DNA of 64,000 nt from Candidatus Palauibacter sp. (lineage in GTDB: Bacteria > Gemmatimonadota > Gemmatimonadetes > Palauibacterales > Palauibacteraceae). A model generated the notes under the pieces. That model made no database searches. It saw only the letters and a program-made list of their open reading frames with translations, and was not told where the DNA came from. Shown here piece by piece: positions 14,315 to 63,571 of the stretch. The stretch's first letter is position 1. Each line of letters begins with the position of its first letter. Location of the stretch: the NCBI RefSeq assembly GCF_965221685.1, contig NZ_OZ244907.1. The stretch is one strand, 5' to 3'. A program made the position numbers and the translations under genes.

Positions 14315-14345
14315 CGGGGCGCCCGACCCGGACCTCGCGTCGGCC

Positions 14346-15277: not shown

Positions 15278-15283
15278 CGACCA

Positions 15284-44487: not shown

Positions 44488-45636
44488 CTACGACTTCGGG
44501 ATGTCCTTGCCGGGATCCACGAAGGGGCGGGGCACGACCGTGGCGTCGCGTTCTCCGTCCGGCGTCGTCACGCTCAACCGCGTGCCCAACTCTCCGGAGG
44601 CGGTCGGCACCAGGACGTAGCCGATGTTCCGCCCGAGACGGGGCGAGTGGACGGCGGAGGTCACGAAGCCGATCTCCTCTCCGTCCCGGTGCACGGGCCA
44701 GCGGTCCATGTTCAGGTCGAGCGGGGCGCCCGAGATTTCGATTCCGGCGAGGAGCCGCCGCGGCCCCTCCTCGGCGATCCGGGCCAGCGCCTCGCGGCCG
44801 ATGAAGTCGCCCTCCTGGTCGAAGTCGACCTGCCAGCCGAGCCCGACCTCATAGGGGTTCGTGTCCAGCGTCATGTCGATGCCGTAGTTGAGGATGCCGG
44901 CTTCGATGCGGCGGATGTCCGACGGACCCGTGGGAGAGATGCCCAGGTCTCGGCCCGCCTCCATCACGCGATCCCAGAGTTCGACGCCCCGGCTCCCGTC
45001 CCTGAGATAGATCTCGTAGCCGACCTCGCCGCTCCATCCGGTGCGGGTCACGACCACCGGGATGCCGTCCAGATCCGTCTCCAGGAACCAGTAGTAGCGG
45101 AGTTCGAGCACTTCCTCCCCGAAGAGCCGGCGCACGACCTCCTTCGACTTCGGACCCTGCACCTGCATCGGCGAGACGTCCGGCTCGCAGATCTCCACAT
45201 CGAGACCGGCGTTGAGCGCGATGCCCTTCGCGTAGAGCAGGACGTCGCTGTCCGCGAGCGCGAGCCAGAAGTGGTTCTCACCGAGGCGCAGCAGCACGGG
45301 ATCGTTCACGATCCCGCCGTCCTCGGCGCCGATGAGGACGTATTTCCCCTGCCCGACGGCGCACTTCGACAGATCCCTGGGGGTGAGCAGGTTCGTGAAC
45401 TCGAAGGCGTCCGGCCCGGTGATCTCCACCTGCCGCTCGACGCTCACGTCCCACACCGTGACGCCGGTCAGGAGCTTCTCGTACTCCGCGTGCAGATCGT
45501 CGTATCGGGTGGGCAGGAACATGTGGTTGTAGACCGTATAGCTCCGGCACCCGTCCCGGAGGGTGGCCTCGAAGTAGGGGGAGCGCCGAAGCCGGGCCCC
45601 ACGCTGGATCAAAGCCATGTCGAACGTCTCGGTCAT
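44488..45636 (-). CDS. GcvT-family aminomethyltransferase (possibly DmdA-like demethylase)
   Basis: Co-linear glycine-cleavage T-protein folate-binding blocks. The N-terminal 95 aa of the ORF are excluded as noise. Confidence 0.75.
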   Translation of the reverse strand: MTETFDMALIQRGARLRRSPYFEATLRDGCRSYTVYNHMFLPTRYDDLHAEYEKLLTGVTVWDVSVERQVEITGPDAFEFTNLLTPRDLSKCAVGQGKYVLIGAEDGGIVNDPVLLRLGENHFWLALADSDVLLYAKGIALNAGLDVEICEPDVSPMQVQGPKSKEVVRRLFGEEVLELRYYWFLETDLDGIPVVVTRTGWSGEVGYEIYLRDGSRGVELWDRVMEAGRDLGISPTGPSDIRRIEAGILNYGIDMTLDTNPYEVGLGWQVDFDQEGDFIGREALARIAEEGPRRLLAGIEISGAPLDLNMDRWPVHRDGEEIGFVTSAVHSPRLGRNIGYVLVPTASGELGTRLSVTTPDGERDATVVPRPFVDPGKDIPKS

Positions 45637-45775
45637 CGGGATCTCCCGTTGGTCCAGTGCTGGGTGGGTCGTAGTGAGCGGAACCGGCGCGGAATTCACG
45701 CCCGGATCCAGGGCGCGCGCATGATAGGTGCCGACCCGAACGGACGGCCAGTCTACCTCACAGCCGCGCTGTGGC

Positions 45776-47260
45776 TCACCTTGGCATGTGCAGCCGCTTG
45801 CCCTCGATTTCTGCTTCGCCCGAATCGAGGAAGGCGTTACACGCTTCGAGCTGCCGTTGGGTCTCGGCAATCGATGCCCAGTCGACCGCGATCGTCCAGC
45901 GCTGCGCATAATCGAGTGCACGAATCAGAGGTTCCGTGCGTTGGGTTCGCGACAACGCCCGTAGCGCGGCCAAGTAGTCGTCGCGGAAGACCGTCGGGAT
46001 GACGATCCGCTCTTCCCCTCCGGCCACGAGTTCCGCGTTCATCATCACCCGCGCCACACGTCCGTTGCCGTCCTCAAAGGGGTGAACCTCGCTGACGAGG
46101 AACATCATGTAGGCCGCGCGCTCAAAGGGCGATTCCAGACTGTGGTACAGGTCGAAGCCCTGCTCCAGTGTCCCGGGTACCAGTTCGGGAGCGACGAAGA
46201 TGGTTTGTCCAGCACGGTTCTGTCTTTCCTTGAACTCGCTAGGGCGCATCTCGGGGCGTCCCGCCATGATCTTCGCGTTGCGCTCACGCAGGAGACCGAG
46301 TAACGCCTCAAAATCCTTCGGCGTCCGACTCATTTCTTCTCTGTCCGAGACGAGACGCCAAGTACCGATCACATCCCTCGCGTCGGCTGGCCGGTGTCGC
46401 GGGATCGCGCCCTCGAAGACGATTTGGACCGCTTCATCGACCAGGAACTCCGTACCCTCGACGAAGTTCGAGAAGTACGCCTCAAAAAACGCCAGCGTCA
46501 CAGGCCCTGGAGCCTTGCGGTGAGGAGCTGGACGGTCGGTAGGAGGACGATCGCGAAGCGACTGATGCAGCCCGTGGAACAACTCCAGCCGATGGGGATC
46601 GTAGGCCCGCCCCCGACTGCGGGACCGCCCGACTCGCGAATCGAGTCGACTCTCCCGGGTGCCCAGCATAGCGCCGATCAGAGCCTGGAGGTCTGCGGCC
46701 TCCGTTTCCATATCGAGTTCAGAGGCTACTGCTCGGGCCTCGTCGCGGAGCCGGTTGGCGGCTTCTTCGCCCGAGACACGAATGAGACGATCAAGGTGCT
46801 CCTCAAGCTCCGTGCGCGTGAGAGTACGCGCGACACGGCCGCCCCGGGCTCGGGATGGACGAAGGTTCTCGAGATAAGCCCTGGGCCTGGAACTGAGGTA
46901 TAGCCCGTTGACAAAAGGTGTATCCGACGCAATTGACCCTGGCCCACGGCGAGGACGTAGCACGACTCCGGGCAATTCGGTCGTCCTCCCTCGCTCGCTG
47001 ACAAGGCAAACCGATCCATCGCTGGCGGGATCCGCTTCCAAAGCAGTGCGATCCGCGACCAGAGCACCTGGAAAGTACCCTGCGACGATTCCCCACAGGT
47101 TGCGCTTCACGATATCTTCGGGGTCATCGTCCAGGTTCTTGGTGTAGAGGCGAGACGCCAGTTTCCGGAGTTTCCCGGCCTTCATGGCCCGTGATACATC
47201 CCGGCTGATCGCCGTATGGGACACGAAGGCATCGGGCAATTCATCTAGTACACGGTTCAT
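45776..47260 (-). CDS. Fic-family protein (AMPylation/phosphocholination fold)
   Basis: Canonical Fic motif HPFEDGNGRVARVMMN. 494 aa with an extended N-terminal domain. Confidence 0.8.
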   Translation of the reverse strand: MNRVLDELPDAFVSHTAISRDVSRAMKAGKLRKLASRLYTKNLDDDPEDIVKRNLWGIVAGYFPGALVADRTALEADPASDGSVCLVSERGRTTELPGVVLRPRRGPGSIASDTPFVNGLYLSSRPRAYLENLRPSRARGGRVARTLTRTELEEHLDRLIRVSGEEAANRLRDEARAVASELDMETEAADLQALIGAMLGTRESRLDSRVGRSRSRGRAYDPHRLELFHGLHQSLRDRPPTDRPAPHRKAPGPVTLAFFEAYFSNFVEGTEFLVDEAVQIVFEGAIPRHRPADARDVIGTWRLVSDREEMSRTPKDFEALLGLLRERNAKIMAGRPEMRPSEFKERQNRAGQTIFVAPELVPGTLEQGFDLYHSLESPFERAAYMMFLVSEVHPFEDGNGRVARVMMNAELVAGGEERIVIPTVFRDDYLAALRALSRTQRTEPLIRALDYAQRWTIAVDWASIAETQRQLEACNAFLDSGEAEIEGKRLHMPR

Positions 47261-47829: not shown

Positions 47830-48990
47830 CGGCTTTTTCTCCTTTCTCCGCCCGATCAGGCGGCAGTGCGAACCCGGTAGGTCTCCTTCTTCGTGGCCAG
47901 CGCCCAGACCGTCCGCGCCATCTTGTTGGCGAGCGCCACCGCCACCAGCTTCTTCGGCTTGCGTGCCAACATCCCGGCCAGCCACGGATCCGTGACGTCG
48001 CCGCGCCGGACCGCATGCGTGACAACGGTCATCGCTCCGGAGACCAGGAGCCGCCTGAGATCGCGTTGGCCCATTTTTGAGATCCGGCCCAGCCTCGGCT
48101 TGCCTCCGGTCGTGTGTTGCCGGGGCACGAGGCCGAGCTAGGCCGAGAAGTCGCGGCCGCGCCGGAAGCTCTCCATCGGCGGCGCGAAGGCCTGGATGGC
48201 CATCGCGGTGACCGGCCCGATGCCCGGGATCGTCATCAGGCAAGCCGTCTCTTCGTCCTCCCGTGCCCTCCGCAGGAATTCACGGTCGAGTCCGTCGATC
48301 TTCTCATCGAGCTCGTCGATCCGCCCAAACAGCAGCCAGCCCAGCTCGACGACCGCCTCCGGCAGGCCCGAGTCCCCGTCTTCGAGCACTGCGGCCAGTT
48401 GCCCGACCCGGGCTCTGCCTTTTGGAGCGACGATGCCGTACTCGACCAGGTGACCCCGAAGCGCGTTGATCGTCTGCGTGCGCTGGCGCGCCAGCAGGTC
48501 ACGCGTGTGAAAGAGCATCGGCTTGCTGCGCCTCCGTCTTGACCGCCACGAAGTGCATGGTCGGCCGCTCGGCCGCTTCCGTGATCGCCTCCGCGTCCGC
48601 CGCGTCGTTCTTCTGCCGCTTGACGAACGGCTTCACGTAGATCGGCGGAACCAGCCGCACCTCGTGGCCGAGCGCGGCGATCTCCCGGCCCCAGTAGTGG
48701 GCACCAGCGCACGCCTCCATCGCCACCGTGCAAGGCGGCTGCGAGGCGAGAAAGCTCAGCACCTTCCCGCGGCTCAGCTTCCGGCGGAAGGCAACCGACC
48801 CATCCGCCTTCGCCCCGTGCACCTGAAAGCTGCGCTTTGCCAGATCGATCCCGATGACGCTAACCTCTTCCATGTGGATGCCTCCTCCCTCAGATGGTCC
48901 GATTAAATCGCTCAGTACCATCTTGGCACATCGCGATGCCGTCGAGAGGGGGCGTCCACTCCATCGGCTTGTCTCCCATAATCATGCAGA
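47830..48990 (-). mobile_element. degraded IS110-family insertion sequence (boundaries approximate; this family has no terminal inverted repeats)
   Basis: Extent of the transposase remnants plus short flanks. Flanked by ~600-bp non-coding, lower-GC stretches on both sides. Confidence 0.4.
47856..48921 (-). pseudogene. IS110-family transposase, disrupted (one frameshift near 48499-48518 and one in-frame TAG at ~48138-48140)
   Basis: N-terminal DEDD_Tnp_IS110 block VIGIDLAKRSFQVHG...CTVAMEACAGAHYWGRE...KNDAADAEAI in ORF 48499..48921. Middle part MTIPGIGPVTAMAI in ORF 48138..48518 in another frame. C-terminal ORF 47856..48128 is in the same frame as the middle ORF but separated by an amber codon. 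Confidence 0.7.
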
Positions 48991-49543: not shown

Positions 49544-50776
49544 ATGTTCCCCCGGCAAGCCGGTCCATCGATTCCTGACGCCGCCGCGACCATAGCGGGT
49601 GTAGCCGATCGCCCACTGGTCGGCGCGGGCATTTATCTCGATTACGCCGCGACTACGCCTGTGGATCCGGCGGTCGCACGGGCGATGAGCGGTTTCCTCA
49701 CGATGGATGGCACCTTCGGGAACCCAGCCTCAGTGACTCACGGCTTCGGCCAGGCCGCAGCGGACGCGGTGGAGAATGCTCGACGGGAGGTCGCGGCCCT
49801 GGTTTCCTCAAGACCCGAAGAGATCATCTGGACCTCCGGGGCGACCGAGGCAATCAACCTTGCCCTGAAAGGATCGGCCCTAGCCCGTCGCGAGCGTGGC
49901 AGGCACATCGTTACCTCGCCCTTGGAGCATAGGGCAGTCCTCGATTCTGCGGAGTGGCTTGAGTCGCTGGGGTTCGAGATCGGCTATGTCGAGCTAGACG
50001 ATCACGGCAGAGTGACCCGGAAGGCTCTCTCGCGAGCGCTTCGACCAGACACCGTGCTCGTGTCTCTGATGCTCGTCAACAACGAGACGGGTACGATCAC
50101 CGACACCGCAGCGCTTGGCCCACTGATTCGTGAGCGGGGAGCACTCTTCCATGTGGACGCCGTGCAGGGCGCGGCGCGGCTACGCATGGACGACATCGCC
50201 ACTGCGGCGGATCTCGTCTCAATCAGCGGACACAAGATGTACGGACCGAAGGGGATTGGCGCGATCCGGGTTCGTATGCCTCTCCTAGGTGAGTTGGTTC
50301 CTCAAATGCACGGTGGCGGGCACGAGCTTGGGCTACGTTCAGGAACGCTGCCGACCCACCAGGTCGTCGGTATGGGCGAGGCCGCCAAGCTCGCTCGCGA
50401 GCACGGTGAGGCTGACGCGAAACACGTCACCTCCCTCGACCGAAAGCTGCGCGCACACCTAGACCGGATCAGGGGAGCGTCTTTGAACGGCAGCACTCCG
50501 CGACGCGTCCCCGGCATTCTCAACGTACACTTTGCGGATGTGGCGGCGGAGGCGCTGATGATCGGTCTCGGAAACGTCGCGATCTCATCCGGCTCAGCGT
50601 GCACCGCCGCAGAAGTACTGCCCTCTCATGTCTTGCTCGCACTCGGCCTTGGCGAAGAGAGAGCCCACTCTTCGGTCAGATTCAGCTTCGGTCGCTTTAC
50701 GACAATGGACGAAATCGATCACGTCGGATGGCTGCTGGCTGAGATCGTACCCGCGTTGCGGAAGCTATCGCGATGA
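49544..50776 (+). CDS. cysteine desulfurase, IscS/NifS class (DndA/SspA-like)
   Basis: IYLDYAATTP N-terminal block, SGHKMYGPKGIGA (PLP lysine), SSGSACTAAEV (active-site Cys). Stop overlaps the next start (ATGA). Confidence 0.8.
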   Translation: MFPRQAGPSIPDAAATIAGVADRPLVGAGIYLDYAATTPVDPAVARAMSGFLTMDGTFGNPASVTHGFGQAAADAVENARREVAALVSSRPEEIIWTSGATEAINLALKGSALARRERGRHIVTSPLEHRAVLDSAEWLESLGFEIGYVELDDHGRVTRKALSRALRPDTVLVSLMLVNNETGTITDTAALGPLIRERGALFHVDAVQGAARLRMDDIATAADLVSISGHKMYGPKGIGAIRVRMPLLGELVPQMHGGGHELGLRSGTLPTHQVVGMGEAAKLAREHGEADAKHVTSLDRKLRAHLDRIRGASLNGSTPRRVPGILNVHFADVAAEALMIGLGNVAISSGSACTAAEVLPSHVLLALGLGEERAHSSVRFSFGRFTTMDEIDHVGWLLAEIVPALRKLSR

Positions 50777-51963
50777 GCGTGTCCGCAACCTCGCCTACCA
50801 GTGTGGGGACCCTGCCGAACCGCATCGAGGCTGTCAAGGACGTGATTCGCTCGGAATACCAGGAGACGCACCGCTATCCATGGCTCGTCGCCTACTCCGG
50901 TGGGAAGGATTCCACCTTGCTCCTACAGTTGGTGTGGGAGGTAATTGCCGATCTCCCGCCCGACGCGCGACAGCGCCGCGTGCTGGTCGTTGGCAACGAC
51001 ACACTCGTCGAATCCCCCCTAGTCATCGAGCATCTCCGCGATTCGCTCAAGGAGATTGGGTCCGCCGCAGGGGAGCAGGGACTTCCCATCGAGACGAAGA
51101 TCACCGTACCGTGTATCGACCAGACATTCTGGGTGAGCGTCATCGGTCGCGGGTACATCCCTCCCACGCGCAATTTTCGCTGGTGTACCGACCGGATGAA
51201 AATTCTGCCCACTACCCGCTTGCTCAAACGTATCACTCGCAGCGCCAAAGGGTCGGTGCTCCTGATCGGAACGCGACGGGCGGAGTCGCAAAACCGTCAG
51301 CGTGCGATGAACAAACGAGAAGTGTCCGCTAGTCAGTTGAACCCGCACGGCAAGGTGGACGGCTGCTGGATGTTCGCACCTCTTGCGGACCTAAAGGACA
51401 ACGACGTGTGGATGATGCTCATGCAACACCCGGCACCCTGGGGTAAATCCCACCGTCGGCTGATCACCCTCTACCGTAACGCTGGCGGCGGCGAGTGTCC
51501 GCTGGTCATCACGAAGGAACAGGCTCCGTCTTGCGGGAGTTCGTCGCCGCGCTTTGGATGTTGGACGTGCACGGTTGTCCAGAAGGACCGCAGCCTCCGT
51601 GGGCTCATCGACTCCGGATATGCGGATACGGCACGAATGGAAGCGCTGTTCGATTTCCGCGAGTGGTTAATTGAAATGCGGGAGAGCGACACGAACCGTC
51701 TCCCCGTGCGTCGGGACGGCAACGTCAAGCGCCGGAAGGACGGGTCTCGCATCTATGGCCCGTTTACGCTCGCTGTGCGGAAGGAAATACTCAACAGGCT
51801 CCACAGACTCGAAGAGCGAATCGGCAAACGGCTCATTCTCCCAGCAGAGATTGACTCCATCGAAGATGTCTGGTGGCGCGACGAAATCCGCGAAGACGCG
51901 CGGCTCGCGCTTGAGCGCAGCATCGTGAACGAGGATCCCGAACCGGTCTTGGAGACGGCGTGA
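50773..51963 (+). CDS. PAPS-reductase-family ATP pyrophosphatase, DndC/SspD-like (putative DNA sulfur-modification enzyme)
   Basis: PP-loop VAYSGGKDST. Cys cluster GGGECPLV...SCGSSSPRFGCWTCT as in DndC-type proteins. 396 aa; ATGA overlap upstream, GTGA overlap downstream. Confidence 0.65.
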   Translation: MSVSATSPTSVGTLPNRIEAVKDVIRSEYQETHRYPWLVAYSGGKDSTLLLQLVWEVIADLPPDARQRRVLVVGNDTLVESPLVIEHLRDSLKEIGSAAGEQGLPIETKITVPCIDQTFWVSVIGRGYIPPTRNFRWCTDRMKILPTTRLLKRITRSAKGSVLLIGTRRAESQNRQRAMNKREVSASQLNPHGKVDGCWMFAPLADLKDNDVWMMLMQHPAPWGKSHRRLITLYRNAGGGECPLVITKEQAPSCGSSSPRFGCWTCTVVQKDRSLRGLIDSGYADTARMEALFDFREWLIEMRESDTNRLPVRRDGNVKRRKDGSRIYGPFTLAVRKEILNRLHRLEERIGKRLILPAEIDSIEDVWWRDEIREDARLALERSIVNEDPEPVLETA

Positions 51964-53735
51964 CTAGAATTCAATCGGAAGTAAGACTCCTCTTTCGCGT
52001 TCTGTGCTCGGCTCACTTCGAGGTGCCTTGGCACCAGCGCCACTACGACTGGACGGTGCAGGAGGTCGGCGATCTTCTCGAGGATCTGATGGACGCGCTC
52101 GATTCCGACAAGACTTGTTACTTCCTCGGCTCCATCATGCTACTCAAGCCAACCGGTGCCGCGCCGTGGAGGATCAACGACGGACAGCAACGGCTGATCA
52201 CATTCTCTCTGCTCATGGCGGCCTTCTGCCGCCGCTTCTCCGAAGAAGAGCCCCGTGATACTTGGCGCGAGACATCGGCGCTCCGCGCCCTGTTCGACCG
52301 CAACGAGAACGAAATCTCTCGCTTGGACGATGCGCACCAATATACGCATCGGATCGCGCCTCCGAAGGACAATAGGCGCATGTACACCCAGCTCCTCCAC
52401 GGTCACGACATCGGCAGCAACGGACTTATGACAGCTGCCTGGAACAAGATCGATGACTTTGTCGACTGCATGGACAGAGAGACGAGAGAGGCATTCTTCG
52501 ACTTTCTGCTGACGAAGTTGGAAGTCTCGGTTCTAACCGTTCCCGGAGATGTGGACGCTAACAGCGTGTTTGAGACGCTCAACGCCCGCGGTAAATCGCT
52601 GAGCGATGTCGACCTTATTCGGAACCTGCTGTACTCGTGTTTTTCGGAAATCGATGACACCGCGCGGCGAAACGCCGTGCACGCCAACCTCCAGAGCACG
52701 AGTGTCATCCTCAACACGAAACCGAAGGTCTCAGAGTACTTCCGCTGTTACCTGCAATGCCGCTATGGCTTCTTGCGAAAGAAGCGATTCTACCGCGAGT
52801 TCTGGAAGAAAACGCAGCACACGATACGCGGTGCCGCGTCCACCGACTACGCCTACAGCCTCGTAGCCGGCTTGGGGCGCCCGGAGAGTACATGGCTGTT
52901 CCAGACGATCATCTCTGCGAAACCGAGCCAAGCCCTTGAAGGGCGATTGCCGACGGTCTCCGGTAAACGCGATCTCGCCGTACTCCTCCGCGAACTCCAG
53001 GGATACAAGGTCTCGCATCCGCTCTGCTTCGCCTTGCTCCACCGGTTCATGGCCGAGAGCAGTGCAGCGAAGAAGAGAGCAGTGGGAAGGGTGGTCGGGC
53101 GCAGCTTGAAGAATCTTACATCATACATCATGAGAGCGGCCTTTGTGACCTCGACATTCCGGCCATCGAGAATCGAGGAACCCTTGGCGATGTGCGCCCA
53201 GAACGTGTTCGTGGGCACCGATTTCCGGTCGCTCGACATCATGGCCGAGTTGGAAGGAAACGACCCATTCGGTGTCGTTGACGACGCGAGCTTCATCCGG
53301 CGCATGACCGACATGGAACTACGCAGCAACAACCGATCCAGCAATCAGAAGGCGCTACGGTATCTGTTCGGCATCAATGCCCAACAGCAGAGAGGATCCG
53401 ATGCTCTGCAAATCGGCGGCTGTAGTGTCGAGCATGTGTTACCGCAGTCGGAAATGTACTGGCCGAGTTGGACTGGATTCAAAGGCGAGAATCCAGCAGC
53501 GTGGGTCCACCGGACAGGCAACTTCGTAGTTGTATCTCGCCGGGAGAATCGGGGTGGGTTCGAGTTCAACGCCAACTTCGCCGCCAAAAGGCGAGCCCTT
53601 GCGGAGAGTCCGCTGTTGATGGCAAGGAACGTAGCAGAAGACCACGAAGAGTGGACCCCTGCGGCCATCGAGAAACGCTCGGAACAGCTTGCTGTAGCGG
53701 CCGCTGGGATATGGACATTCCGCCGTGGGAACTGA
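51960..53735 (+). CDS. DUF262-DUF1524 two-domain nuclease (SspE/GmrSD-like, probable modification-sensing NTPase + His-Me finger nickase)
   Basis: N-terminus VPWHQRHYDWTVQEVGDLLEDL and the INDGQQRLITF (DGQQR) DUF262 signature. C-terminus GGCSVEHVLPQS...GNFVVVSRRENRGG...FNANFAAKR DUF1524 HNH-like motif. 591 aa. Confidence 0.75.
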   Translation: MTRIQSEVRLLFRVLCSAHFEVPWHQRHYDWTVQEVGDLLEDLMDALDSDKTCYFLGSIMLLKPTGAAPWRINDGQQRLITFSLLMAAFCRRFSEEEPRDTWRETSALRALFDRNENEISRLDDAHQYTHRIAPPKDNRRMYTQLLHGHDIGSNGLMTAAWNKIDDFVDCMDRETREAFFDFLLTKLEVSVLTVPGDVDANSVFETLNARGKSLSDVDLIRNLLYSCFSEIDDTARRNAVHANLQSTSVILNTKPKVSEYFRCYLQCRYGFLRKKRFYREFWKKTQHTIRGAASTDYAYSLVAGLGRPESTWLFQTIISAKPSQALEGRLPTVSGKRDLAVLLRELQGYKVSHPLCFALLHRFMAESSAAKKRAVGRVVGRSLKNLTSYIMRAAFVTSTFRPSRIEEPLAMCAQNVFVGTDFRSLDIMAELEGNDPFGVVDDASFIRRMTDMELRSNNRSSNQKALRYLFGINAQQQRGSDALQIGGCSVEHVLPQSEMYWPSWTGFKGENPAAWVHRTGNFVVVSRRENRGGFEFNANFAAKRRALAESPLLMARNVAEDHEEWTPAAIEKRSEQLAVAAAGIWTFRRGN

Positions 53736-55161
53736 ACGCAAAGCGCACGCGGCTGAACTGCGCCGGCATGCCGAAGACATGCTCGGAGTTCCTGCACGAT
53801 TGCACGACTATCAGTGGGAGGGGGTCTCCTTCCTTTATCGGAATCGCGCGGCCCTGCTCGCGGATGAGATGGGGTTGGGGAAGACGGTGCAAACCGCTGT
53901 CGCGCTTGCGCTCACTCTGAGCACGCGGCGCGAGATGAGCCGCGCACTCATTGTTGCACCGGCGTCACTGAAGATGAACTGGATGTCCGAGCTTGCGAAG
54001 TGGGCTCCGTCGTTGACGGTTCGCAGCTTGGTGGGTGGTGCGCGCGAGCGCGAGGCGTTCTATCTGTTGCCAATACCGGTTCTTGTCAGTTCGTATGAAC
54101 AGATTCGGCAAGACGGATTGAACCGGATTCCGTCCAACACCTTTGACATCGTTATCCTCGATGAGGCGCAACGGATCAAGAATCCGAATTCGGCAACAGC
54201 CCTGTCTTGCAGACTGCTCTCTCGGAAGTGCTCGTGGGCGTTGTCGGCCACGCCATTGGAGAACGATGCCCGGGACGTGGCTTCGATCCTTGCTTTTCTT
54301 GATCCCATGCAGCCCTTCGATATGTCAGCCCGGCAGCTATCGGCTCGGCTCAGTTCGATGATGCTTCGCCGCCGCAAATCGGAGGTGCGGGGTGAACTGC
54401 CTCCGGTAATCGTTCAGGACTTGAGCCTCGAACTCGCCGGGCCTCAACGAACGCGATACGACGAGCTATGGACGAAACGCTATGAAGCCGTATCAGAGGG
54501 TATTGGCGACACCGCTATCGCCCTATTGGCGACGATTACTCGGTTGAAGATCATCTGTAACTTTGATTCGGACTCAGGAGCATCCACCAAATTCGCCGCC
54601 TTGGGTGAAATCTGCGCCGGTGCCGGTCCAGATGCGCGGATCCTCGTCTTCTCCCAGTTCGTCGAGACTCTCAAGTGGGTCGCCAACCGCCTCGGCGTGG
54701 CGTGTGATCTCCTCACAGGATCTATGTCGTCGGGCGCCCGCGAAGCCGCGATTGAGCGATTCAAGACGGCGGGCACCCCAAGAGTGCTTTTTACGTCGCT
54801 ACGCGCGGGAGGCGTCGGTCTGAATCTAGGCGAGGCCACCCATGTCGTAATGTATGATCGCTGGTGGAATCCGGCTGTCGAGATGCAGGCGGTGTATCGC
54901 GCGCATCGCTTTACCCGGGAGACGCCGCTACACGTCGTACGCTTCACGTTGACCGGTACTATCGAAGAACGAATCGCGTCAATTCTGGACGCCAAGCAGA
55001 GGCTCTTTGAAGATGTCGTAGAATCCACGGAAACCACGGCTCAAGATTTCTCGGTCGAAGAGCTAATGCACATTCTCGAAATCTCCATTGGAGATCAGCA
55101 CTCACTGACGAAGGGAACAGAGGACGGTCGCAATCATGGCGAAAATCTTGGAATATCGTGA
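53725..55161 (+). CDS. minimal SNF2-family DNA-dependent ATPase/helicase
   Basis: Walker A ADEMGLGKTVQT, DExx box ILDEAQRIKN, helicase-C motifs (GGVGLNL, QAVYRAHR). GTG start overlaps the upstream stop; 478 aa with no extra domains. Confidence 0.8.
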   Translation: MGTERKAHAAELRRHAEDMLGVPARLHDYQWEGVSFLYRNRAALLADEMGLGKTVQTAVALALTLSTRREMSRALIVAPASLKMNWMSELAKWAPSLTVRSLVGGAREREAFYLLPIPVLVSSYEQIRQDGLNRIPSNTFDIVILDEAQRIKNPNSATALSCRLLSRKCSWALSATPLENDARDVASILAFLDPMQPFDMSARQLSARLSSMMLRRRKSEVRGELPPVIVQDLSLELAGPQRTRYDELWTKRYEAVSEGIGDTAIALLATITRLKIICNFDSDSGASTKFAALGEICAGAGPDARILVFSQFVETLKWVANRLGVACDLLTGSMSSGAREAAIERFKTAGTPRVLFTSLRAGGVGLNLGEATHVVMYDRWWNPAVEMQAVYRAHRFTRETPLHVVRFTLTGTIEERIASILDAKQRLFEDVVESTETTAQDFSVEELMHILEISIGDQHSLTKGTEDGRNHGENLGIS

Positions 55162-55960
55162 CATCCCCCTCGACGAGTTGGTCATCGGCATGGGGCAAGT
55201 CCGGACTCAGAGTCCTGGCAAGGGAATCGACGACCTAGTGAGGAGCATCGAGGCCCAAGGGCTGCTACAGCCCATTGTCGTGTGCCCCGCGAGGGACGAG
55301 GGCAAGTGGGAGATCCTCGTCGGACAGCGCCGTTTCCTCGCGCACAGACTGCTGGAAAGGGAGTCGATTGCCGCAGCCGTTCTGGACGAACGGGTAAGCA
55401 GCGGCGAGGCCAAGGCCATCTCCATCACGGAAAACCTGATTCGACGGCAACTCTCCGGGACGGAGCTGAAGGACGGCATTCTCTATCTCTACAACCTGTA
55501 CGGGAGCTTGAAGGATGTGGTGGAGGCCACTGGCCTGCCGTACAGCAAGGTGCGAGACAACGTAAAGTATCCCCGCCTTATCCCGGAGTTGAAGACACTT
55601 GTCGACGATGGTAAGGTCGATGTCAATGCGGCCGTAAAGGCGCAGGACGCAGCTAGCGATGACCACGGTAATGTCAAGTCGGGCGATGCCATCATCCTAG
55701 CACAGGCGATGGTACCCATGTCAGGGGTCCAGAGGAAGAAGGTAACCAAGGAGCGGAAGGAACGCCCGGAGAGGCCGGTGGAGGATGTGATCGAGGACGC
55801 TACAACCGGATCGAGGGTCACTCAGATCGTCGTGACGGTAACCCAGGACACACGCGCGGCCCTACAGAGGTTTGCAAGGGAGGAAGGAACAAACCAGGAC
55901 GAGGCAGCCGCAACACTCATTGAGGAGGCTCTGACGGGGCGCGGCCTTCTCGATGACTAG
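55136..55960 (+). CDS. ParB-like protein (ParB N-terminal nuclease/CTPase fold + HTH)
   Basis: LQPIVVCPARDEGKWEILVGQRRFLAHRLL (GxRR box II region) and ISITENLIRRQL. HTH LKDVVEATGLPYSKVRDNVKY. Basic/acidic C-terminal tail. Overlaps the SNF2 gene by 26 nt. Confidence 0.7.
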   Translation: MAKILEYRDIPLDELVIGMGQVRTQSPGKGIDDLVRSIEAQGLLQPIVVCPARDEGKWEILVGQRRFLAHRLLERESIAAAVLDERVSSGEAKAISITENLIRRQLSGTELKDGILYLYNLYGSLKDVVEATGLPYSKVRDNVKYPRLIPELKTLVDDGKVDVNAAVKAQDAASDDHGNVKSGDAIILAQAMVPMSGVQRKKVTKERKERPERPVEDVIEDATTGSRVTQIVVTVTQDTRAALQRFAREEGTNQDEAAATLIEEALTGRGLLDD

Positions 55961-56678
55961 TCTGGCCGGTCTGAACGCGTTGGAATTGGGGCGCTTGCGG
56001 ATGTCCGTAGGATATGGGACGCACAGAAGCGGGCGGCCCCTGTCACCAGTGGAAGTCGGTGCGCTTCTTCATAACGCCCGGAAGAACGGAGCCTCGCTAA
56101 CGGACTGTGCAGAGGCAGCGCAGCTTCATAGCACGGGTATTCGTCGCTTTCTGCGTATTCTGGACCTCCCGTCTGATCTTCTGCATTTGATCGATTGGGG
56201 TTCCGGCAAGGACTTTGTCGGGTTCTCCGCTGCGGTGGAAACCACGAAGCTGACAGACTCCGACGATCAGCGTGCGGTCGCCGCTGCGATACTGGCAAGC
56301 AACCTCAGTAGCAAAGAGGTCAGGCAGGTTACTCAACTGCGGCAGCGGTCAGGACGCCTCATCGAGGAGTGTGTACAGGAAGTTCTTAGGATGCGCCCAA
56401 CAGTTGTAAGGCGCTATGTTTTCATTGGCTCCGTTGCATCCGAAAACATGGAAGAGCTGCGGGCGCTTGCGCAGTCGGCTAGGGATTCGATGTTGGCGAC
56501 AGGTATCGAGAAGATTGGCCTTGAGAGCGCGACTGGTCGGTTGGGAGTGAGGTTCTTCACGCTCGTTGGTGACGAGCGGTTCAACGCCTCTTTGCGTGAA
56601 ATCGGCAAGGAAGCGATTGAGGCACAGCTTCGGACTCACGTTTCGCGGGCCGTGATCGATGCCACATCGGACGGTTGA
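55953..56678 (+). CDS. ParB-type HTH domain protein lacking the N-terminal ParB box (paralogous partner of the preceding gene)
   Basis: LSPVEVGALLHNARKNGASLTDCAEAAQLHSTGIRRFLRILDLPSDLLHLIDWG resembles the ParB/KorB central HTH region. Overlapping start/stop on both sides. Confidence 0.45.
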   Translation: MTSLAGLNALELGRLRMSVGYGTHRSGRPLSPVEVGALLHNARKNGASLTDCAEAAQLHSTGIRRFLRILDLPSDLLHLIDWGSGKDFVGFSAAVETTKLTDSDDQRAVAAAILASNLSSKEVRQVTQLRQRSGRLIEECVQEVLRMRPTVVRRYVFIGSVASENMEELRALAQSARDSMLATGIEKIGLESATGRLGVRFFTLVGDERFNASLREIGKEAIEAQLRTHVSRAVIDATSDG

Positions 56679-57681
56679 CGTATTCGATAACGGTGCCGTG
56701 CGCCTCGGAGCGAACACGGTGTGCGACGGCTATGCGATGGGCTATGCCTTCCGGGTTCAGTCGCACCTGCACGATGACCACATGGCCGAGTTCGACAAGA
56801 GCAAAGGCGAGCAGGATCTGTTCATGAGTCCAGAGACCCGCCGACTGCTGATTGCCGAGCGGAACGACGATCTTGAGTATCGGGACAACCTCATTCCGCT
56901 GGGACGTGGTATACAGAGAGAACTCAACGATGGTTCCAAGCTTACGCTCCTTCCCTCGGGCCACATGCTCGGATCGTGCCAGGTAGCCCTCGAATTGTCT
57001 AGCGGTATCCGTTGCGGCTATTCGGGCGATTTCGCTTGGCCACTGGACGATGTGATGCAGGTTGACGAGCTGGTCGTGGACAGCACCTACGGAAGCCCTG
57101 CGAGCGTCCGACGTTACACACAAGATGAGGCCGAAAGCTGTCTTTTGGAGGTGGTGTGCCAAGCTCTTCGCCGCGGGTCTGTGCATGTCAAGGCTCACAG
57201 AGGAACCATTGAGCGCGTGCTGCAAGTTGTCGCTGGCAATGTCGGCGTTCCGGTCTTGGCTAGTGCGCGTTTGATCGCCGAAGTCGAGGTATATCGGGAT
57301 CATGGGTTCGGAGCGGAGGAATTGGTAGCGTTGGACTCGGACATAGGGCGCGCCGTGCTGGAGGAGCGGTCCTATGTCCGCCTTTACTCTAAGGGAGACT
57401 CCTTCGGCAACGAGCTGATCGAAGGCACGAGCATTACGTGCAGCGCGTACATGGTGAACACCGACCATCCGCTGCTCCAGTTTTCGGAACGGGCATACCG
57501 GGTGGCTCTATCGAACCACGCGGACTTCGAGGGGACCTTGGCGTATGTGGAGGCTACGGGAGCCCAAAGGGTTGTGACTGACAACACAAGAAGCCACGGA
57601 GTAGACCTGGCCATTGCGATCAACAACCGCTTTCCGGACATCCGCGCCGAACCGTCTACGAACGGCCCTGTGCCGTCCTGA
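56659..57681 (+). CDS. metallo-beta-lactamase-fold hydrolase (putative nuclease)
   Basis: HLHDDHM (HxHxDH) motif plus downstream His/Asp ligands. 340 aa; overlaps the upstream gene by 20 nt. Confidence 0.7.
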   Translation: MPHRTVDVFDNGAVRLGANTVCDGYAMGYAFRVQSHLHDDHMAEFDKSKGEQDLFMSPETRRLLIAERNDDLEYRDNLIPLGRGIQRELNDGSKLTLLPSGHMLGSCQVALELSSGIRCGYSGDFAWPLDDVMQVDELVVDSTYGSPASVRRYTQDEAESCLLEVVCQALRRGSVHVKAHRGTIERVLQVVAGNVGVPVLASARLIAEVEVYRDHGFGAEELVALDSDIGRAVLEERSYVRLYSKGDSFGNELIEGTSITCSAYMVNTDHPLLQFSERAYRVALSNHADFEGTLAYVEATGAQRVVTDNTRSHGVDLAIAINNRFPDIRAEPSTNGPVPS

Positions 57682-58651
57682 GCCCCCCTGCTTCGTGGAA
57701 AGAAACAGGGTCTTCTAGCCCAGCATCGCGTTGCCGTGAGGCGTGGCCTGAAGCGGAGAGCGATTCCCGCAAATTGAGGCGGTTTCCCCGCTGTTCCAGC
57801 GCTGCGGGAAGAGATACGGTTCAAGGGCAAGAAACGCGGATCCGCGTCCGAACTCGAATCCCAGGCCCGTACCCACGATCAGGCGGTCATCGATCCAGAT
57901 GAGATTGTGGACCACGGCACCCACGTCTTCCGGTCGGCCGGAGAGTCCCGCGACCCTAGGCGACATCGAGCGCTTGTTCCTTGACTCCGAGTTGAGGAGG
58001 CACCGGTTCCAGCCCCACGCCACGGTCTCGGACGCCTACTGGCTTCGCTCCGTCCCGGACGCGCGCGCGGTCACCTTCAAGCCGGCCGTGTTCGAACGTC
58101 ACCCGTCCACGGTGGAGCTACTCACCTACGGGAACCCCACCTTCAACGATCTGTTGCTCGAAGTCGCCGAGCCGGACGGCGACGACTCCTCTGACACCGC
58201 GGCCGCTGAAGCCGGAGCGGCTCTCGTGCTGCACGATCCCGGACCTCCGCCCGTCGCCGTCTGCGTTGTCAAGGAAGAATGCCGATCTCTCCACCGTCGC
58301 AAGTGTTGCCGATTACCGGACGGCGGCGCAGCAGGGGGATGTCGCTTGGTCCGATTCGGACAGGAAACGCGCGTTCGCCGTGCTTCGCGAAGCGCGCGCC
58401 CGCGTGGAGGAGGAGGCCGCTACGGTCTCGCGTCGAATGCGGGGGCCAAGCTGCGCGGCCTGCGCGAGGAGGCTCGCCGGATTCTCATCGAGAGCGCGCA
58501 CATCGTCGAGGCCCGGGATGGGTTGTTCGCCGGCAACGGCTTCGACCGCCTCTTGAAGCGGGGAGTGCCGTATCCCGGCCTCATCACGGTGGCCAGCGGC
58601 AGCATGCCCTCCATGATTGCCACGGATACCCCATTGGGTTACCATGATTCC

Positions 58652-58990
58652 ATGCAGACCGTTGCCGAGACACCCACCTTCTCCCGTCAAGCCGACAAGC
58701 TCTTCAACGAGGACGAGAGACGCGAACTGATCGACTACCTGGCCGAGCATCCCTTGGCAGGGGACGAGATCCCCGGCACCGGCGGGGTCCGAAAAATGCG
58801 ATTCGGAGCGTCGGGGCGCGGTAAGCGAGGTGGTGCCCGCGTGATCTATTTGTTCGGGGGCGAAGGAATGCCGATCTACGCGCTTCTCGCCTACGCGAAG
58901 TCCGACAAGACCGACCTGACTCCCGGCGAGCGCCGAGCGGTGGCCGCGCTCGCAGCCGCCATCAAACTCCACGGAAGGCAGAGGAAATGA
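58652..58990 (+). CDS. HigB-2/Gp49-family (RelE/ParE-superfamily) toxin
   Basis: GTGGVRKMRFGASGRGKRGGARVIYLFGGEGMPIYALLAYAKSDKTDLT matches the Gp49/HigB-2 pattern. ATGA overlap with the downstream HTH gene (toxin-first order). Confidence 0.7.
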   Translation: MQTVAETPTFSRQADKLFNEDERRELIDYLAEHPLAGDEIPGTGGVRKMRFGASGRGKRGGARVIYLFGGEGMPIYALLAYAKSDKTDLTPGERRAVAALAAAIKLHGRQRK

Positions 58991-59682: not shown

Positions 59683-59976
59683 TCAGTAATGACCCCGAGC
59701 TCGGAGGAACTTGACTTCCCCGTTCGTAGCTTTGTAAAGCAGGCGATTCTTCTGGTCGATCCTCCGCGACCACTGACCGGACCGATCACCAGAGAGGGCT
59801 TCGGGTTTCCCCCTACCGGTGGCTAGGTCTCGGCACGCTTCCGAGATCAGCTTCAGGATGTGATTGCACTTCTTGGGGTCCTTCTTCGACCAGTACAGCA
59901 GATCCTTCAAGCAGTGCTTATGGAAGAGGGAGTCCCTAGGTTTTTCTGTGACCACTCCGCTTTCTTCTGTGGTCAC
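59683..59976 (-). CDS. yoeB: YoeB/Txe-family toxin
   Basis: KDLLYWSKKDPKKCNHILKLISEACRDLATGRGKPEALSGDRSGQWSRRIDQKNRLLYKATNGEVKFLRARGHY is co-linear with YoeB, including the C-terminal HY. Confidence 0.8.
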   Translation of the reverse strand: MTTEESGVVTEKPRDSLFHKHCLKDLLYWSKKDPKKCNHILKLISEACRDLATGRGKPEALSGDRSGQWSRRIDQKNRLLYKATNGEVKFLRARGHY

Positions 59977-60257
59977 TCCTCAGCAAGACCGAGAAAATCT
60001 CGGAGCTCATCAACGCTCATTCGTACATACGACTCGCGATCTTCGATCGCCTCTCGCAAGGCATTAGCGTTCTCCGGATACGAGAGACAAAGTGTCTCTC
60101 GCGAGCCTGAGTCTAGCTCGGCGGGTACGGCGACCGGCCCGCCTGCTTCGGTGCCATCAGCGCGCCACTCGCCTTCTGGTGCAGTCCCGGCGACCGAGCC
60201 AAGCACGAATCCTACAACGCTGGCCGTGGCGGCCGAGCTGCAGTTGAACGTAGTCAT
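59973..60257 (-). CDS. YefM-like antitoxin with atypical/possibly disrupted N-terminus
   Basis: C-terminus ETLCLSYPENANALREAIEDRESYVRMSVDELRDFLGL matches the YefM C-terminal toxin-binding region. The N-terminal 50 aa do not resemble the Phd/YefM fold. 4-nt overlap with yoeB. Confidence 0.45.
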   Translation of the reverse strand: MTTFNCSSAATASVVGFVLGSVAGTAPEGEWRADGTEAGGPVAVPAELDSGSRETLCLSYPENANALREAIEDRESYVRMSVDELRDFLGLAEE

Positions 60258-61903: not shown

Positions 61904-62434
61904 CGTCGGATCCCTCCGTACTTCTATCAGACAAAGCTTGTTCCGTTTTTTCAGTGTTCCATCGTAATGCGGGCGGTGCCGGATGTCACCCGGCACCGGT
62001 AACCGGTTGGTACGCTTCGGCAAGCCGACGGGCACCAAACAGGAGGGGATTCGGCGGCCACCCGTCCGCGGCGATCTGTCAACCGAAACCGAAGATGTGG
62101 CGGGTCCGCAACTGCTGCGGGATAGGTGAAGTGCCGTCGTCGAGACGGGTCCTCAGTTGACACAGATGAGGCGGTGTCGGCGGCGTTTCGCAGCAAGTCG
62201 GACGCTGATAGTCCTGTGATGTCCGGTGTCGTCTATTAGCAGTTCGTAACATCCTTTATCCTCAACGCTTTAGGTAGGAATCCTCCTACCTCCTCCGTCC
62301 AGCGACGGTCCTTGCCATCCCGCTCCATCCCAGATACAATTAGGGGATAGATAATGTGAACAGAAACCCCACGAAACGCCCGCGAGGCACAGCCCAGCGG
62401 CCGCCATCCCTACAAGCGGCTCTCGGCCCCCTTC

Positions 62435-63571
62435 GTGCGCTCCGCTCCGCCCGGTCGGCACTGCGACGGGAACGGACTTTACCTCTACGTCCAGAAGACC
62501 GGAACCCGAAGCTGGATTCAACGGCTCGTCATCCGGGGCCGCAAGCGCGAGCTCGGACTCGGCAGCGTCGAACTGGTCTCTTTGGCCGAAGCCAGGGAGC
62601 AGGCGCTCGCCAACCGCAAGCTCGCCCGTTCGGGCGGCGATCCCTTGGCCGAGAAACGGCGGCTGGTCGGCATCCCCACCTTTGCCGAGGCCGCCAAGCG
62701 TGTCGTCGAGCAGAAGCGGGCCGGGTGGCGGAGCGCGGCCTACGCCAAGGAGTGGTTCCGTAACTTGGAGATTCACGCCTTCCCCCGCATCGGGGATGTG
62801 GCCGTCTCGGAGGTCACGAGCGGCGACGTGTTGGACATCCTCACCCCCATCTGGCACACCAAGGCTCCCACGGCCCGGTTCGTCCACATGCGGGTCCGGG
62901 CGGTCTTGGAATGGGCCATCGCCATGGAATGGAGGACCGACAACCCCTGCGACTGGATCCTTCACCTGCTCGGCCCGCAGCACGATGTCGTCACCCACCA
63001 CAAGGCCCTGCCTCACGGCGAGGTCGCCGACGCCATCGGGAAGGTGCGGGCTGGGGAGCCGGAGAGGGTGGACACGTTGGCCTTCGAGTTCCTCGTGTTG
63101 ACGGCGGCGCGGGGCGCCGAGGTCCGTGGCGCGGTGTGGAGCGAGATGGATGAACGCTCGGGTGTTTGGACGATCCCCGCAAGGAGGATGAAGACCGGGC
63201 GCGAGCAGCGGGTGCCGCTGTGCGGGCGGGCGCTGGTGATTCTGGAGGCGGCCCGGAAGCTGGAGGGCGGGAAGAACCCGGTCGTGTTCGTGAACGAGCG
63301 CGGGAGGGCGTTGGACGGGAAGCGGCTGAACCGGCTGTTGAGGAAGCACGGGATCGCGGCGGTGCCGCACGGGTTCCGGTCGTCGTTCCGGGACTGGGCG
63401 GCGGAGAGGACGGATCATCCACGGGAGGTGGTCGAGGCGGCGCTGGCGCATGTGGTCAAGAGCAAGGTCGAGGCCGCCGACCGGCGCACGGACCTGTTCG
63501 AGCGGCGTCGTCGGCTCATGGCCGACTGGGAAGCGTATCTCGCGGGCCGGAGAGCGGGCACCGGAACCTGA
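62435..63571 (+). CDS. int: P4/CP4-57-type tyrosine integrase (Arm DNA-binding domain DUF4102-like + catalytic core)
   Basis: HCDGNGLYLYVQKTGTRSWIQRL Arm-type N-terminal motif. Catalytic R...HxxR...Y region (LTAARGAEV, HGFRSSFRDWAAE, AHVVKSKVEAAY-like). First usable start is a GTG inside the conserved N-terminal motif. Confidence 0.85.
   Translation: MRSAPPGRHCDGNGLYLYVQKTGTRSWIQRLVIRGRKRELGLGSVELVSLAEAREQALANRKLARSGGDPLAEKRRLVGIPTFAEAAKRVVEQKRAGWRSAAYAKEWFRNLEIHAFPRIGDVAVSEVTSGDVLDILTPIWHTKAPTARFVHMRVRAVLEWAIAMEWRTDNPCDWILHLLGPQHDVVTHHKALPHGEVADAIGKVRAGEPERVDTLAFEFLVLTAARGAEVRGAVWSEMDERSGVWTIPARRMKTGREQRVPLCGRALVILEAARKLEGGKNPVVFVNERGRALDGKRLNRLLRKHGIAAVPHGFRSSFRDWAAERTDHPREVVEAALAHVVKSKVEAADRRTDLFERRRRLMADWEAYLAGRRAGTGT

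Follow-up and report, generated by a model that had tools for sequence, protein, structure and literature searches.

A mobile seven-gene cassette joining a short DndC and a DUF262–HNH protein to an SNF2–ParB–β-CASP block: a possible phosphorothioate-type self/non-self system of sponge-associated bacteria

Here we describe a seven-gene operon (g1–g7, all on the + strand, 49544–57681) in a 64-kb stretch of DNA from Candidatus Palauibacter sp. (Gemmatimonadota; contig NZ_OZ244907.1), the whole of which we call the window. The operon is a real, intact and horizontally mobile cassette, in which a cysteine desulfurase, a short DndC and a DUF262–DUF1524 protein precede an SNF2 ATPase, two ParB-type proteins and a β-CASP nuclease fold. 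Every junction overlaps, by 4 (ATGA), 4 (GTGA), 11, 26, 8 and 20 nt in order from g1/g2 to g6/g7; direct checks of coordinates, start codons and junctions agreed with an initial annotation, made from the letters alone, of seven overlapping co-directional open reading frames (ORFs), whose seven domain calls also held in profile searches, phmmer searches of the PDB and, for g7, an AF2 model with Foldseek. The g2–g7 proteins match public gene calls of Candidatus Palauibacter sp. exactly, which supports the starts chosen for them; that of g1 is the sole uncertain start, because its ORF runs upstream to 49331. RefSeq names are generic: DndC for g2 (WP_420616405.1), DUF262 domain-containing protein for g3, DEAD/DEAH box helicase for g4 and ParB/RepB/Spo0J family partition protein for g5, with g6 unnamed and a 299-aa g7 call termed 'hypothetical'.

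The opening gene, g1 (49544–50776), encodes a cysteine desulfurase of the IscS/NifS class, in the DndA/SspA role (Pfam Aminotran_5, 258 bits; PADLOC SspA 464 bits and DndA 459 bits). Against the DndA model TIGR03235 it scores 386 bits, under the cut-off of 480, and the assignment is by class and context; g1 would be the probable sulfur donor for g2. The latter (50773–51963) is a C-terminally truncated DndC, a PP-loop/Fe–S sulfurtransferase that scores 346 bits against TIGR03183 (cut-off 290) and covers profile positions 5–349 of 447. The initial label 'DndC/SspD-like' survives in its first half: PADLOC gives 376 bits for DndC, 47 bits for BrxP and 22 bits for SspD. With DndC scoring highest, the PADLOC and NCBIfam results ruled out SspD, BrxP and CysH as identities. 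The protein is 40% identical to a 474-aa DndC linked to DndD/E, ends about 85 aa sooner and bears small insertions near the Cys cluster relative to canonical DndC. All DndC-specific cysteines are kept, and the motifs SGGKDS, FRWCT, GECPLV, PSCG and RFGCWTCTV are at least 95% conserved across 64 loci. A sequence search of the PDB with g2 returned no match.

The third protein, g3 (51960–53735, 591 aa), joins a DUF262 domain (ParB-like NTPase) to a DUF1524 domain (HNH/His-Me) and belongs to the GmrSD family, with Pfam scores of 89.7 bits for GmrSD_N and 61.2 bits for GmrSD_C, both above gathering scores, and HEC-06 as its best PADLOC match (204 bits). The SspE/GmrSD-type architecture proposed at first is present; SspE itself is matched weakly (PADLOC 42 bits, N-terminal residues 17–104 only; PDB SspE 6jiv, E 0.05). 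Both catalytic centres are kept, the motifs VPWHQR.YDW, NDGQQR, EH.lP and R.GN...N being at least 95% conserved in 53 loci. A derivation of g3 from DndB was ruled out, as it has neither a DGQHR motif nor a DndB match.

Next in the operon, g4 (53725–55161) is a minimal SNF2-family ATPase/translocase with no accessory domains (Pfam SNF2-rel_dom 144 bits, Helicase_C 73 bits). SNF2 motifs I–VI are conserved across its relatives, and in PADLOC it matches ZorD and DpdE over their C-terminal motor halves only (DpdE helicase half, 194 bits). The ParB/Noc/Spo0J-type protein g5 (55136–55960) has an N-terminal CTPase-type domain followed by a helix-turn-helix (HTH), scoring 49.7 bits for ParB_N (cut-off 26.3) and 60.5 bits for TIGR00180 (cut-off 58.45). 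Residues 6–213, comprising the N-domain and HTH, align with Noc, Spo0J and ParB in the PDB (phmmer E 1e-12 to 1e-6), and the motifs GQRRFLA (the GxxRxxA box) and TENL.RR are at least 95% conserved in 68 loci. PADLOC offers for g5 a marginal PD-Lambda-5_A match alone, and no ParA partner is encoded in the operon.

Neither g6 (55953–56678) nor g7 (56659–57681) matched a model in Pfam, PADLOC or PHROGs v4, and both were therefore modelled. Of ParB, g6 has the HTH only, followed by an uncharacterised C-terminal α/β domain for which the structure search gave no meaningful neighbour; it is likely to be the DNA-targeting partner of g7. The AF2 model of g7 (pLDDT 87, pTM 0.86) retrieves CPSF, FttA, CPSF73, Artemis, SNM1A, Apollo, RNase J and Cas14 from the PDB with Foldseek (E 4e-16 to 1e-12; for the best match E 4e-16, Foldseek probability 1.0, TMq about 0.7). 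On this model g7 is by fold a β-CASP metallo-β-lactamase (MBL) nuclease, sized like SNM1A, Apollo and Artemis, and a putative effector. Its motifs HxHxDH (H36, H38, D40, H41), HMLG, GYSGDF, DSTYG and NHADF are conserved in 72 loci, with the metal ligands invariant. For all proteins of the cassette, the catalytic and NTP-binding motifs show conservation of 95% or more. An exhaustive phmmer search of 1.84 billion proteins defines a small family, 525 representatives at E ≤ 1e-3, nearly all of about 340 aa. An antisense 295-aa ORF (56581–57468, − strand) lies inside g6/g7 and is most likely a high-GC artefact, as more than 60 loci conserve the genes on the plus strand.

Aligning g7 homologues against GTDB contigs, one genome per species, gave 73 loci, each viewed with ±10 kb; 69 related loci remained after redundancy removal, all from metagenome-assembled genomes (MAGs). 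Their hosts span about 13 phyla (Gemmatimonadota, Bacteroidota/Rhodothermales, Acidobacteriota, Gamma- and Alphaproteobacteria, Thermodesulfobacteriota, Binatia, Latescibacterota, Dadabacteria, Poribacteria, Planctomycetota, Verrucomicrobiota, Actinomycetota and Myxococcota). Many of the taxon or bin names indicate marine-sponge holobionts (Poribacteria, Poriferihabitaceae, Porisulfidus, Palauibacter), and sponge genome notes and the Palauibacterales paper back the sponge link of the hosts; the cassette appears to be common to at least eight phyla of sponge-holobiont bacteria. By tblastn of the seven proteins, the clade of the window comprises 53 non-redundant loci with a GmrSD-like gene, window included. 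The synteny recurs in other taxa, as the initial annotation had suggested looking for: 44 of the 53 carry an intact DndC–GmrSD–SNF2–ParB–HTH–MBL series, colinear and contained in 8 kb. In 34 of these 44 the gene immediately before DndC is DndA, which is absent from the other 10 and hence optional. Three look-ups anchored on DndC, independent of g7, gave the same gene context.

ORF clustering of the related loci shows that the shared genes are these seven only, the flanks being unrelated between loci. Operon GC lies under flank GC in 59 of 65 loci; for the window the values are 0.586 for the operon and 0.679 for the remainder, in line with the lower GC first noted. Between the window and a Rhodothermales MAG (L007), ParB is 92% and MBL 89% identical, across phyla. 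Recurrence of the gene set in unrelated flanks, low GC and high cross-phylum identity together show that the cassette moves horizontally. The earlier description of a horizontally acquired, non-canonical, Dnd-derived modification/defence cassette is supported. Searches with g7 gave no match in 72,556 plasmids or 50,697 phage records (tblastn), or in IMG/VR viral contigs.

The window clade is set apart by what stands in for DndD and DndE, whose local absence the initial annotation had remarked on. A tblastn search with the DndD of L073 found no match in the 64-kb window or in any window-clade locus (±10 kb); with the DndE of the same locus there was none in the window and, among g7-related loci, matches came only from those linked to DndBCDE and from L039. 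None of g1–g7 matches a DndD model in PADLOC or NCBIfam. The GmrSD-like gene and DndD/E are mutually exclusive, with 53 loci carrying the former, 11 carrying DndD and an overlap of 0. GmrSD-like loci have a short DndC (385–419 aa), which has lost the conserved tail, about 85 aa, at its C-terminus, and no DndD/E, whereas DndD/E loci have a long DndC (454–533 aa) and no GmrSD-like gene. The position of the GmrSD-like gene is the exact DndD–DndE slot.

In 10–11 deeper-branching loci, the SNF2–ParB–HTH–MBL block adjoins full-length DndC, DndD and DndE, often with DndB-like DGQHR proteins and IscS. Scores here are 565 bits for DndC (TIGR03183, whole profile), 551 bits for DndD and 92 bits for DndE, the gene order in L073 is DndC–DndD–DndE–SNF2–ParB–HTH–MBL, and the hosts are Poribacteria, Planctomycetota, Gemmatimonadaceae, Solirubrobacterales, Myxococcales and an unclassified Proteobacteria MAG. 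Even at 27–33% identity, g7 homologues still follow a ParB_N gene and an HTH gene of about 230–240 aa. Among a sample of six such distant contexts, this trio (ParB, ParB-HTH and β-CASP) stands beside DndE–SNF2 in L083 and beside DndB-C-D-E in L088. In a complete genome (L087; CP104208.1, GCA_026230175.1, 8474–16222), ParB–HTH–MBL is convergent with DndB–DndC–DndD–DndE, and all of these genes are carried by a P2-like prophage with integrase, CI repressor, tail fibre and baseplate genes. In L085 (574–5183) and L086 (840–5449), a 645-aa fusion of ParB_N to an N6/N4 DNA methyltransferase lies directly upstream of ParB–HTH_ParB–MBL, so that the predicted writer is a methylase, not Dnd. Two distant trio cases have no writer within the viewed region. 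Standing beside Dnd sets or a methyltransferase fusion down to 27–33% identity, the trio is a portable partner of DNA-modification writers. As judged from these sequences, the invariant core is ParB/ParB-HTH/β-CASP, SNF2 is frequent and optional, and the partner is a DNA-modification writer, usually Dnd.

Two further relatives add to this range. L089 (656–2404; P0363) holds a natural 582-aa fusion of a g6-like HTH to a g7-like β-CASP domain beside a 250-aa PAPS_reduct ORF; it suggests a g6–g7 complex, and may itself be a frameshift or assembly artefact. In a Terrimicrobiaceae MAG (L074, 2163–10996), Mrr_cat, a PLD+SF2 helicase, a 694-aa SMC/AAA_23 ABC ATPase and a 145-aa ORF join ParB–HTH–MBL, with neither SNF2 nor DndC within 10 kb.

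One explanation of the cassette would be that two unrelated systems merely adjoin in a defence island, or that g2 installs a sulfur modification other than phosphorothioate (PT). Defence genes do cluster and shuffle, PP-loop thiolases act on bases too, and g2 departs from canonical DndC in its missing tail and its insertions. The linkage of the trio to Dnd nevertheless holds from 27% to 93% identity, in about 13 phyla and in unrelated flanks; the window genes overlap across the module boundary drawn below, and g2 lies above the DndC equivalog cut-off with its diagnostic cysteines in place. We regard this explanation as very unlikely. Chance adjacency of the seven genes was ruled out by their recurrence, the unrelated flanks and the distant trio contexts.

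Pairwise distances separate the seven proteins into two modules. Spearman correlations are 0.75–0.82 within {DndA, DndC, GmrSD} and 0.47–0.76 within {SNF2, ParB, HTH, MBL}, as against 0.27–0.54 between the two blocks; the distances of g3 follow those of DndC (0.82) and DndA (0.75) and correlate at 0.29–0.47 with those of g4–g7. DndA–DndC–GmrSD is inverted as a unit in L057 and L059, and in L008 SNF2 is inverted with it. Mean pairwise identity is lowest for g3 (0.47) and g6 (0.53), followed by DndA (0.56) and by DndC, SNF2, ParB and MBL (0.62–0.64). In a midpoint-rooted neighbour-joining tree of ParB+HTH+MBL, the DndBCDE-linked loci are basal and the GmrSD-linked loci form a derived clade, with the DndE-bearing L039 nested inside it.

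This division bears on the model put forward at the outset, in which SNF2, the two ParB-type proteins and MBL replace DndD/E in the DNA handling of the writer, and restriction falls to g3. DndD/E are indeed not present locally, in Dnd, Ssp and BREX type 4 the writer depends on an NTPase together with a DNA-binding or nicking partner (PMC12707154, PMC12914056), and all seven genes of the window are translationally coupled. Against the model, the four-gene block accompanies complete DndBCDE sets and once a methyltransferase, where a substitute for DndD/E would be superfluous; it evolves as a unit apart from DndA, DndC and g3, and SNF2 is missing from some loci of the window clade (L019, L023). 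The model is improbable in our view. The placement of the ParB/HTH/β-CASP block (with or without SNF2) beside complete DndB-C-D-E sets and a methyltransferase fusion makes that block a portable add-on, most simply an effector. It is g3 that sits in the DndD–DndE slot, excludes DndD/E and co-evolves with DndA and DndC, which speaks against casting it as the restriction arm.

We therefore favour, tentatively and at a little under even odds, a mobile two-module self/non-self system with PT marking, in which g1–g3 are the writer and g4–g7 the effector. In such a system g1 would load sulfur onto g2, which would adenylate the DNA backbone via its PP-loop and insert the sulfur. The NTPase and DNA-binding/nicking roles of DndD/DndE (in Dnd) or SspC/SspB (in Ssp) would be supplied by g3, which would probably also set the choice of site. 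On the effector side, g5, as a ParB-type NTP-gated DNA clamp, and g6 would jointly load onto DNA and scan it, the SNF2 motor g4 would translocate, and g7 would cut or degrade DNA that lacks the mark, host PT stalling or disarming the complex. The ParB/HTH/β-CASP module, with or without SNF2, probably attacks unmarked foreign DNA. Directly shown by the sequences are the gene set with its intact catalytic motifs, the modular layout, the complementarity with DndD/E and, over deep divergence, the tie of the trio to DNA-modification writers. The direction of discrimination, the chemistry of the mark and the defence role would follow by analogy with Dnd–DndFGH, Ssp–SspE and Tdp (PMC12707154, PMC12914056). 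Of the individual parts, we hold it highly likely that the mark is sulfur/PT and likely that the function is defence; that g4–g7 form the effector is on balance probable, and that g3 replaces DndD/E is a provisional assignment with slightly less than an even chance.

The main rival keeps the two modules and assigns g3 differently. SspE is a DUF262–DUF1524 protein in a PT system (PMC12707154), and in an SspE-like variant the short DndC and DndA would be a self-sufficient, Tdp-like PT writer, g3 a PT-sensing nuclease against invaders and SNF2–ParB–HTH–β-CASP a second effector arm. The SspE/GmrSD architecture of g3, with intact NTPase and HNH motifs, fits this reading, as does the statement that TdpC alone suffices for PT synthesis (PMC12914056). 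Restriction and modification genes inherited together as cognates would also yield the distance correlations observed, and GmrSD-type enzymes are often embedded in other modification-based loci, such as BrxU (PMC12707154). The SspE-like variant leaves unexplained, however, why DndD/E are lost exactly where g3 appears, in the same slot and with simultaneous loss of the DndC tail. The match of g3 to SspE is also weak, and two restriction arms are needed where the DndBCDE-linked loci manage with one. The in silico data do not separate this rival from the favoured two-module reading with g3 in the writer; we give it the lower chance and consider it doubtful.

Several observations weigh against our preferred assignment of g1–g3 as writer and g4–g7 as effector. 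The homology of g3 is to restriction enzymes (GmrSD, BrxU, SspE) and to no known writer subunit, and no PT-reading (SBD) domain is recognisable in g4–g7. The distance correlations mirror a shared recombination history and are no proof of physical or functional partnership. DndD/E or SspB/C could be encoded elsewhere in the genomes, outside the viewed regions; the evidence base is computational and largely MAG-derived, the source genome being viewed as a 64-kb window. To call the DndBCDE-linked form 'ancestral' is indicative only, because it rests on a midpoint-rooted neighbour-joining tree and six distant contexts. The parts list is also flexible: a Verrucomicrobiota MAG (L064, 6992–12185) has SNF2–ParB–HTH–MBL and a convergent 407-aa DndC with neither DndD/E nor a GmrSD-like gene, and SNF2 is absent from L087 and L088 as well as from L019 and L023, the last two being the cases that count here.

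The surroundings of the cassette bear on whether it serves defence at all. In the GC profile a low-GC island extends over about 46–63.6 kb, with the core gene gcvT (44488–45921, −) at its left edge. Pfam matches agree with the initial picture of an island with an IS110 fragment, toxin–antitoxin genes and an integrase: on the left lie a Fic-domain protein (45776–47260, −) and an IS110-family transposase fragment (48499–48921, −; PF01548, E 1.5e-9, 140-aa ORF), and to the right of the operon an ORF with a RelE-like C-terminus (57899–58990, +), a YoeB toxin (59683–59976, −) with an upstream 94-aa partner ORF (the pair spans 59683–60257) and, near the right island end, a tyrosine integrase (62435–63571, +; Arm-DNA-bind_3, Phage_int_M, Phage_integrase). 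A minus-strand ORF (62270–63451) was rejected as the integrase, having no Pfam match. Far to the left of the window, an ORF at 1323–2846 (+) contains a MobA/VirD2 relaxase nuclease domain (PF03432, E 2e-6), a second mobile-element trace. No tRNA attachment site was found in the 64-kb window, and a promoter/terminator scan gave counts at shuffle level.

On a non-defence reading, PT or another sulfur mark would be epigenetic or redox-protective in the symbionts, and ParB, SNF2 and β-CASP would regulate, turn over or repair modified DNA. In favour of this, DndFGH is missing from most dnd systems and further functions of PT have been proposed (PMC10853773), g7 has a weak NCBIfam match to a ligase-associated DNA-damage-response exonuclease (TIGR04122; 54 bits, far under the cut-off of 325), and the cassette is concentrated in sponge holobionts. 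Set against this are the mobile low-GC island context with toxin–antitoxin, integrase or prophage neighbours; the restriction-type neighbours found among related loci (Mrr, PLD-helicase, HNH), together with a swapping of writers typical of restriction–modification systems; and the 92% cross-phylum identity between the window and L007, which points to selfish or defence-type spread. We judge a purely non-defence role very unlikely.

Neighbouring and decayed genes vary from locus to locus. PT-linked genes sporadically adjoin window-clade loci, namely DndB (PF14072) and HNH_2 proteins. DndB with a conserved 177-aa ORF lies downstream on the opposite strand in L051 (11420–13211), L053, L058 and L076; the last is linked to DndBCDE, and the other three fall in the GmrSD-linked clade. 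In L004 (record of L025, OZ251539.1, an Alphaproteobacteria MAG), a gene for a 569-aa ankyrin-repeat + SH3 protein (13865–15574) stands between the GmrSD-like and SNF2 genes. The gene after the operon there has a precomputed ScoMcrA-SBD/HNH_2 match; our own hmmscan recovered HNH_2 alone, which makes the ScoMcrA-SBD clue a weak one. Decayed copies occur: only part of ParB plus HTH–MBL is left in L012, L024 and L052; for L007 and L027, coverage of g4 by the best SNF2 match is only 57%, and that by the GmrSD match is 80% and 93%.

The cassette is apparently undescribed. The gene set is not described in PADLOC v2.0.0, PHROGs v4 or NCBIfam, nor in a BREX survey or a restriction–modification review (PMC12707154), and the open literature searched (subscription-only papers lay outside its scope) holds no description of DndC + GmrSD + SNF2 + ParB + MBL; the view that the set was uncatalogued thus stands for PADLOC v2 and that literature. 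The fullest survey of Dnd neighbourhoods lists HKD, HNH, REase, URI, HEPN and PIN nucleases and no MBL, SNF2 or ParB module (PMC10853773). A 2026 study of DndC neighbourhoods has one line on small, unvalidated 'dndC + P-loop NTPase + DUF262' clusters in Sulfurimonas (PMC12914056), which may overlap with the cassette.

Of 3416 taxa in which Dnd neighbourhoods are nuclease-linked, only 806 carry DndFGH (PMC10853773). Most dnd clusters are without a known restriction partner, and a portable trio (plus SNF2) that accompanies Dnd writers across 27–93% identity offers a concrete candidate for that role. A writer without DndD/E, if true, would be a compact way of installing PT, with a bearing on what DndD/E contribute and on use as a tool, and a ParB CTP-switch protein in immunity, if true, would broaden what ParB clamps are known to do. 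A 2016 sponge metagenome study found phosphorothioation genes enriched 'even though not functionally complete' (PMC5099237), a remark that a cassette without DndD/E would explain. The complete genome with trio and DndBCDE in a prophage (L087) could serve as an experimental system. More speculatively, and with rather poor odds, the trio (with or without SNF2) could be an unrecognised, widespread restriction module in which a ParB-type NTP-gated clamp surveys DNA for PT or base modification, possibly the missing partner of some 'solitary' dnd clusters; in the sponge-symbiont clade, the dedicated PT-writing proteins would then number just two, DndC without its tail and a DUF262–HNH protein whose GmrSD-type fold was recruited to modification, which would amount to a novel minimal chemistry of writing.

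Among known systems, the cassette shares with Dnd a sulfurtransferase that clears the curated DndC-family cut-off and, next to it, a cysteine desulfurase, and relatives of its effector block adjoin complete DndB-C-D-E operons. It differs in lacking DndB, DndD and DndE, in a DndC shorter by about 85 C-terminal aa and in the DUF262–HNH protein in the DndD/E slot. Like Dnd–DndFGH, it would combine a writer with a separate multi-protein ATPase/nuclease restriction module; unlike DndFGH, that module is made of SNF2, ParB, ParB-HTH and β-CASP. With Ssp it shares a cysteine desulfurase, a PAPS-reductase-fold sulfurtransferase and a DUF262–DUF1524 protein in one PT-type locus, whereas g2 is DndC-type and g3, a generic GmrSD-type protein of 591 aa, matches the approximately 770-aa SspE weakly and at the N-terminus only. 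In keeping with the initial annotation, neither SspB (DUF4007) nor SspC has a PADLOC model match among g1–g7, the only window ORFs scanned for them. TdpABC, from a 2025 Nat Chem Biol paper, reportedly has a translocating ATPase–nuclease effector that is inhibited by PT. Tdp also offers a precedent for PT writing without DndD/E-type partners (PMC12914056); the partner proteins of the cassette are of other families.

Other likenesses are confined to single modules. PbeABCD and CxC–ABC-ATPase systems likewise set alternative accessory modules on Dnd-type cores, and the CxC/Pbe-type core resembles L074, where PLD-helicase, ABC ATPase and a small protein join ParB–HTH–MBL; an ABC ATPase, an HKD nuclease and a DndE-like protein are all missing from the window. 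Membership of BREX type 4 was ruled out (BrxP only 47 bits for g2; no BrxC, PglZ or BrxL match among g1–g7), as were Dpd (no DpdA, DpdB or DpdC match, the g4–DpdE similarity of 194 bits being generic) and DISARM (generic SNF2 similarity only). g3 has the two-domain architecture and conserved motifs (DGQQR, EH, N...N; 53 homologues) of GmrSD/BrxU type IV enzymes (HEC-06), yet these act alone on hypermodified phage DNA, whereas g3 is strictly tied to a truncated DndC and exclusive with DndD/E. The CTP-gated clamps ParB, Noc and KorB share with g5 the GxxRxxA and ENLxR boxes and the N-domain plus HTH, and with g6 the ParB DNA-binding fold; g5 and g6 differ in having no ParA partner and no partition context. 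The β-CASP fold and metal ligands of g7 are those of SNM1, Artemis, CPSF73 and Cas14, from which its family differs as a separate clade of about 340 aa, always adjoining two ParB-type genes. Relative to known PT-type modification–restriction systems, what is new is the accessory module and the composition of the writer.

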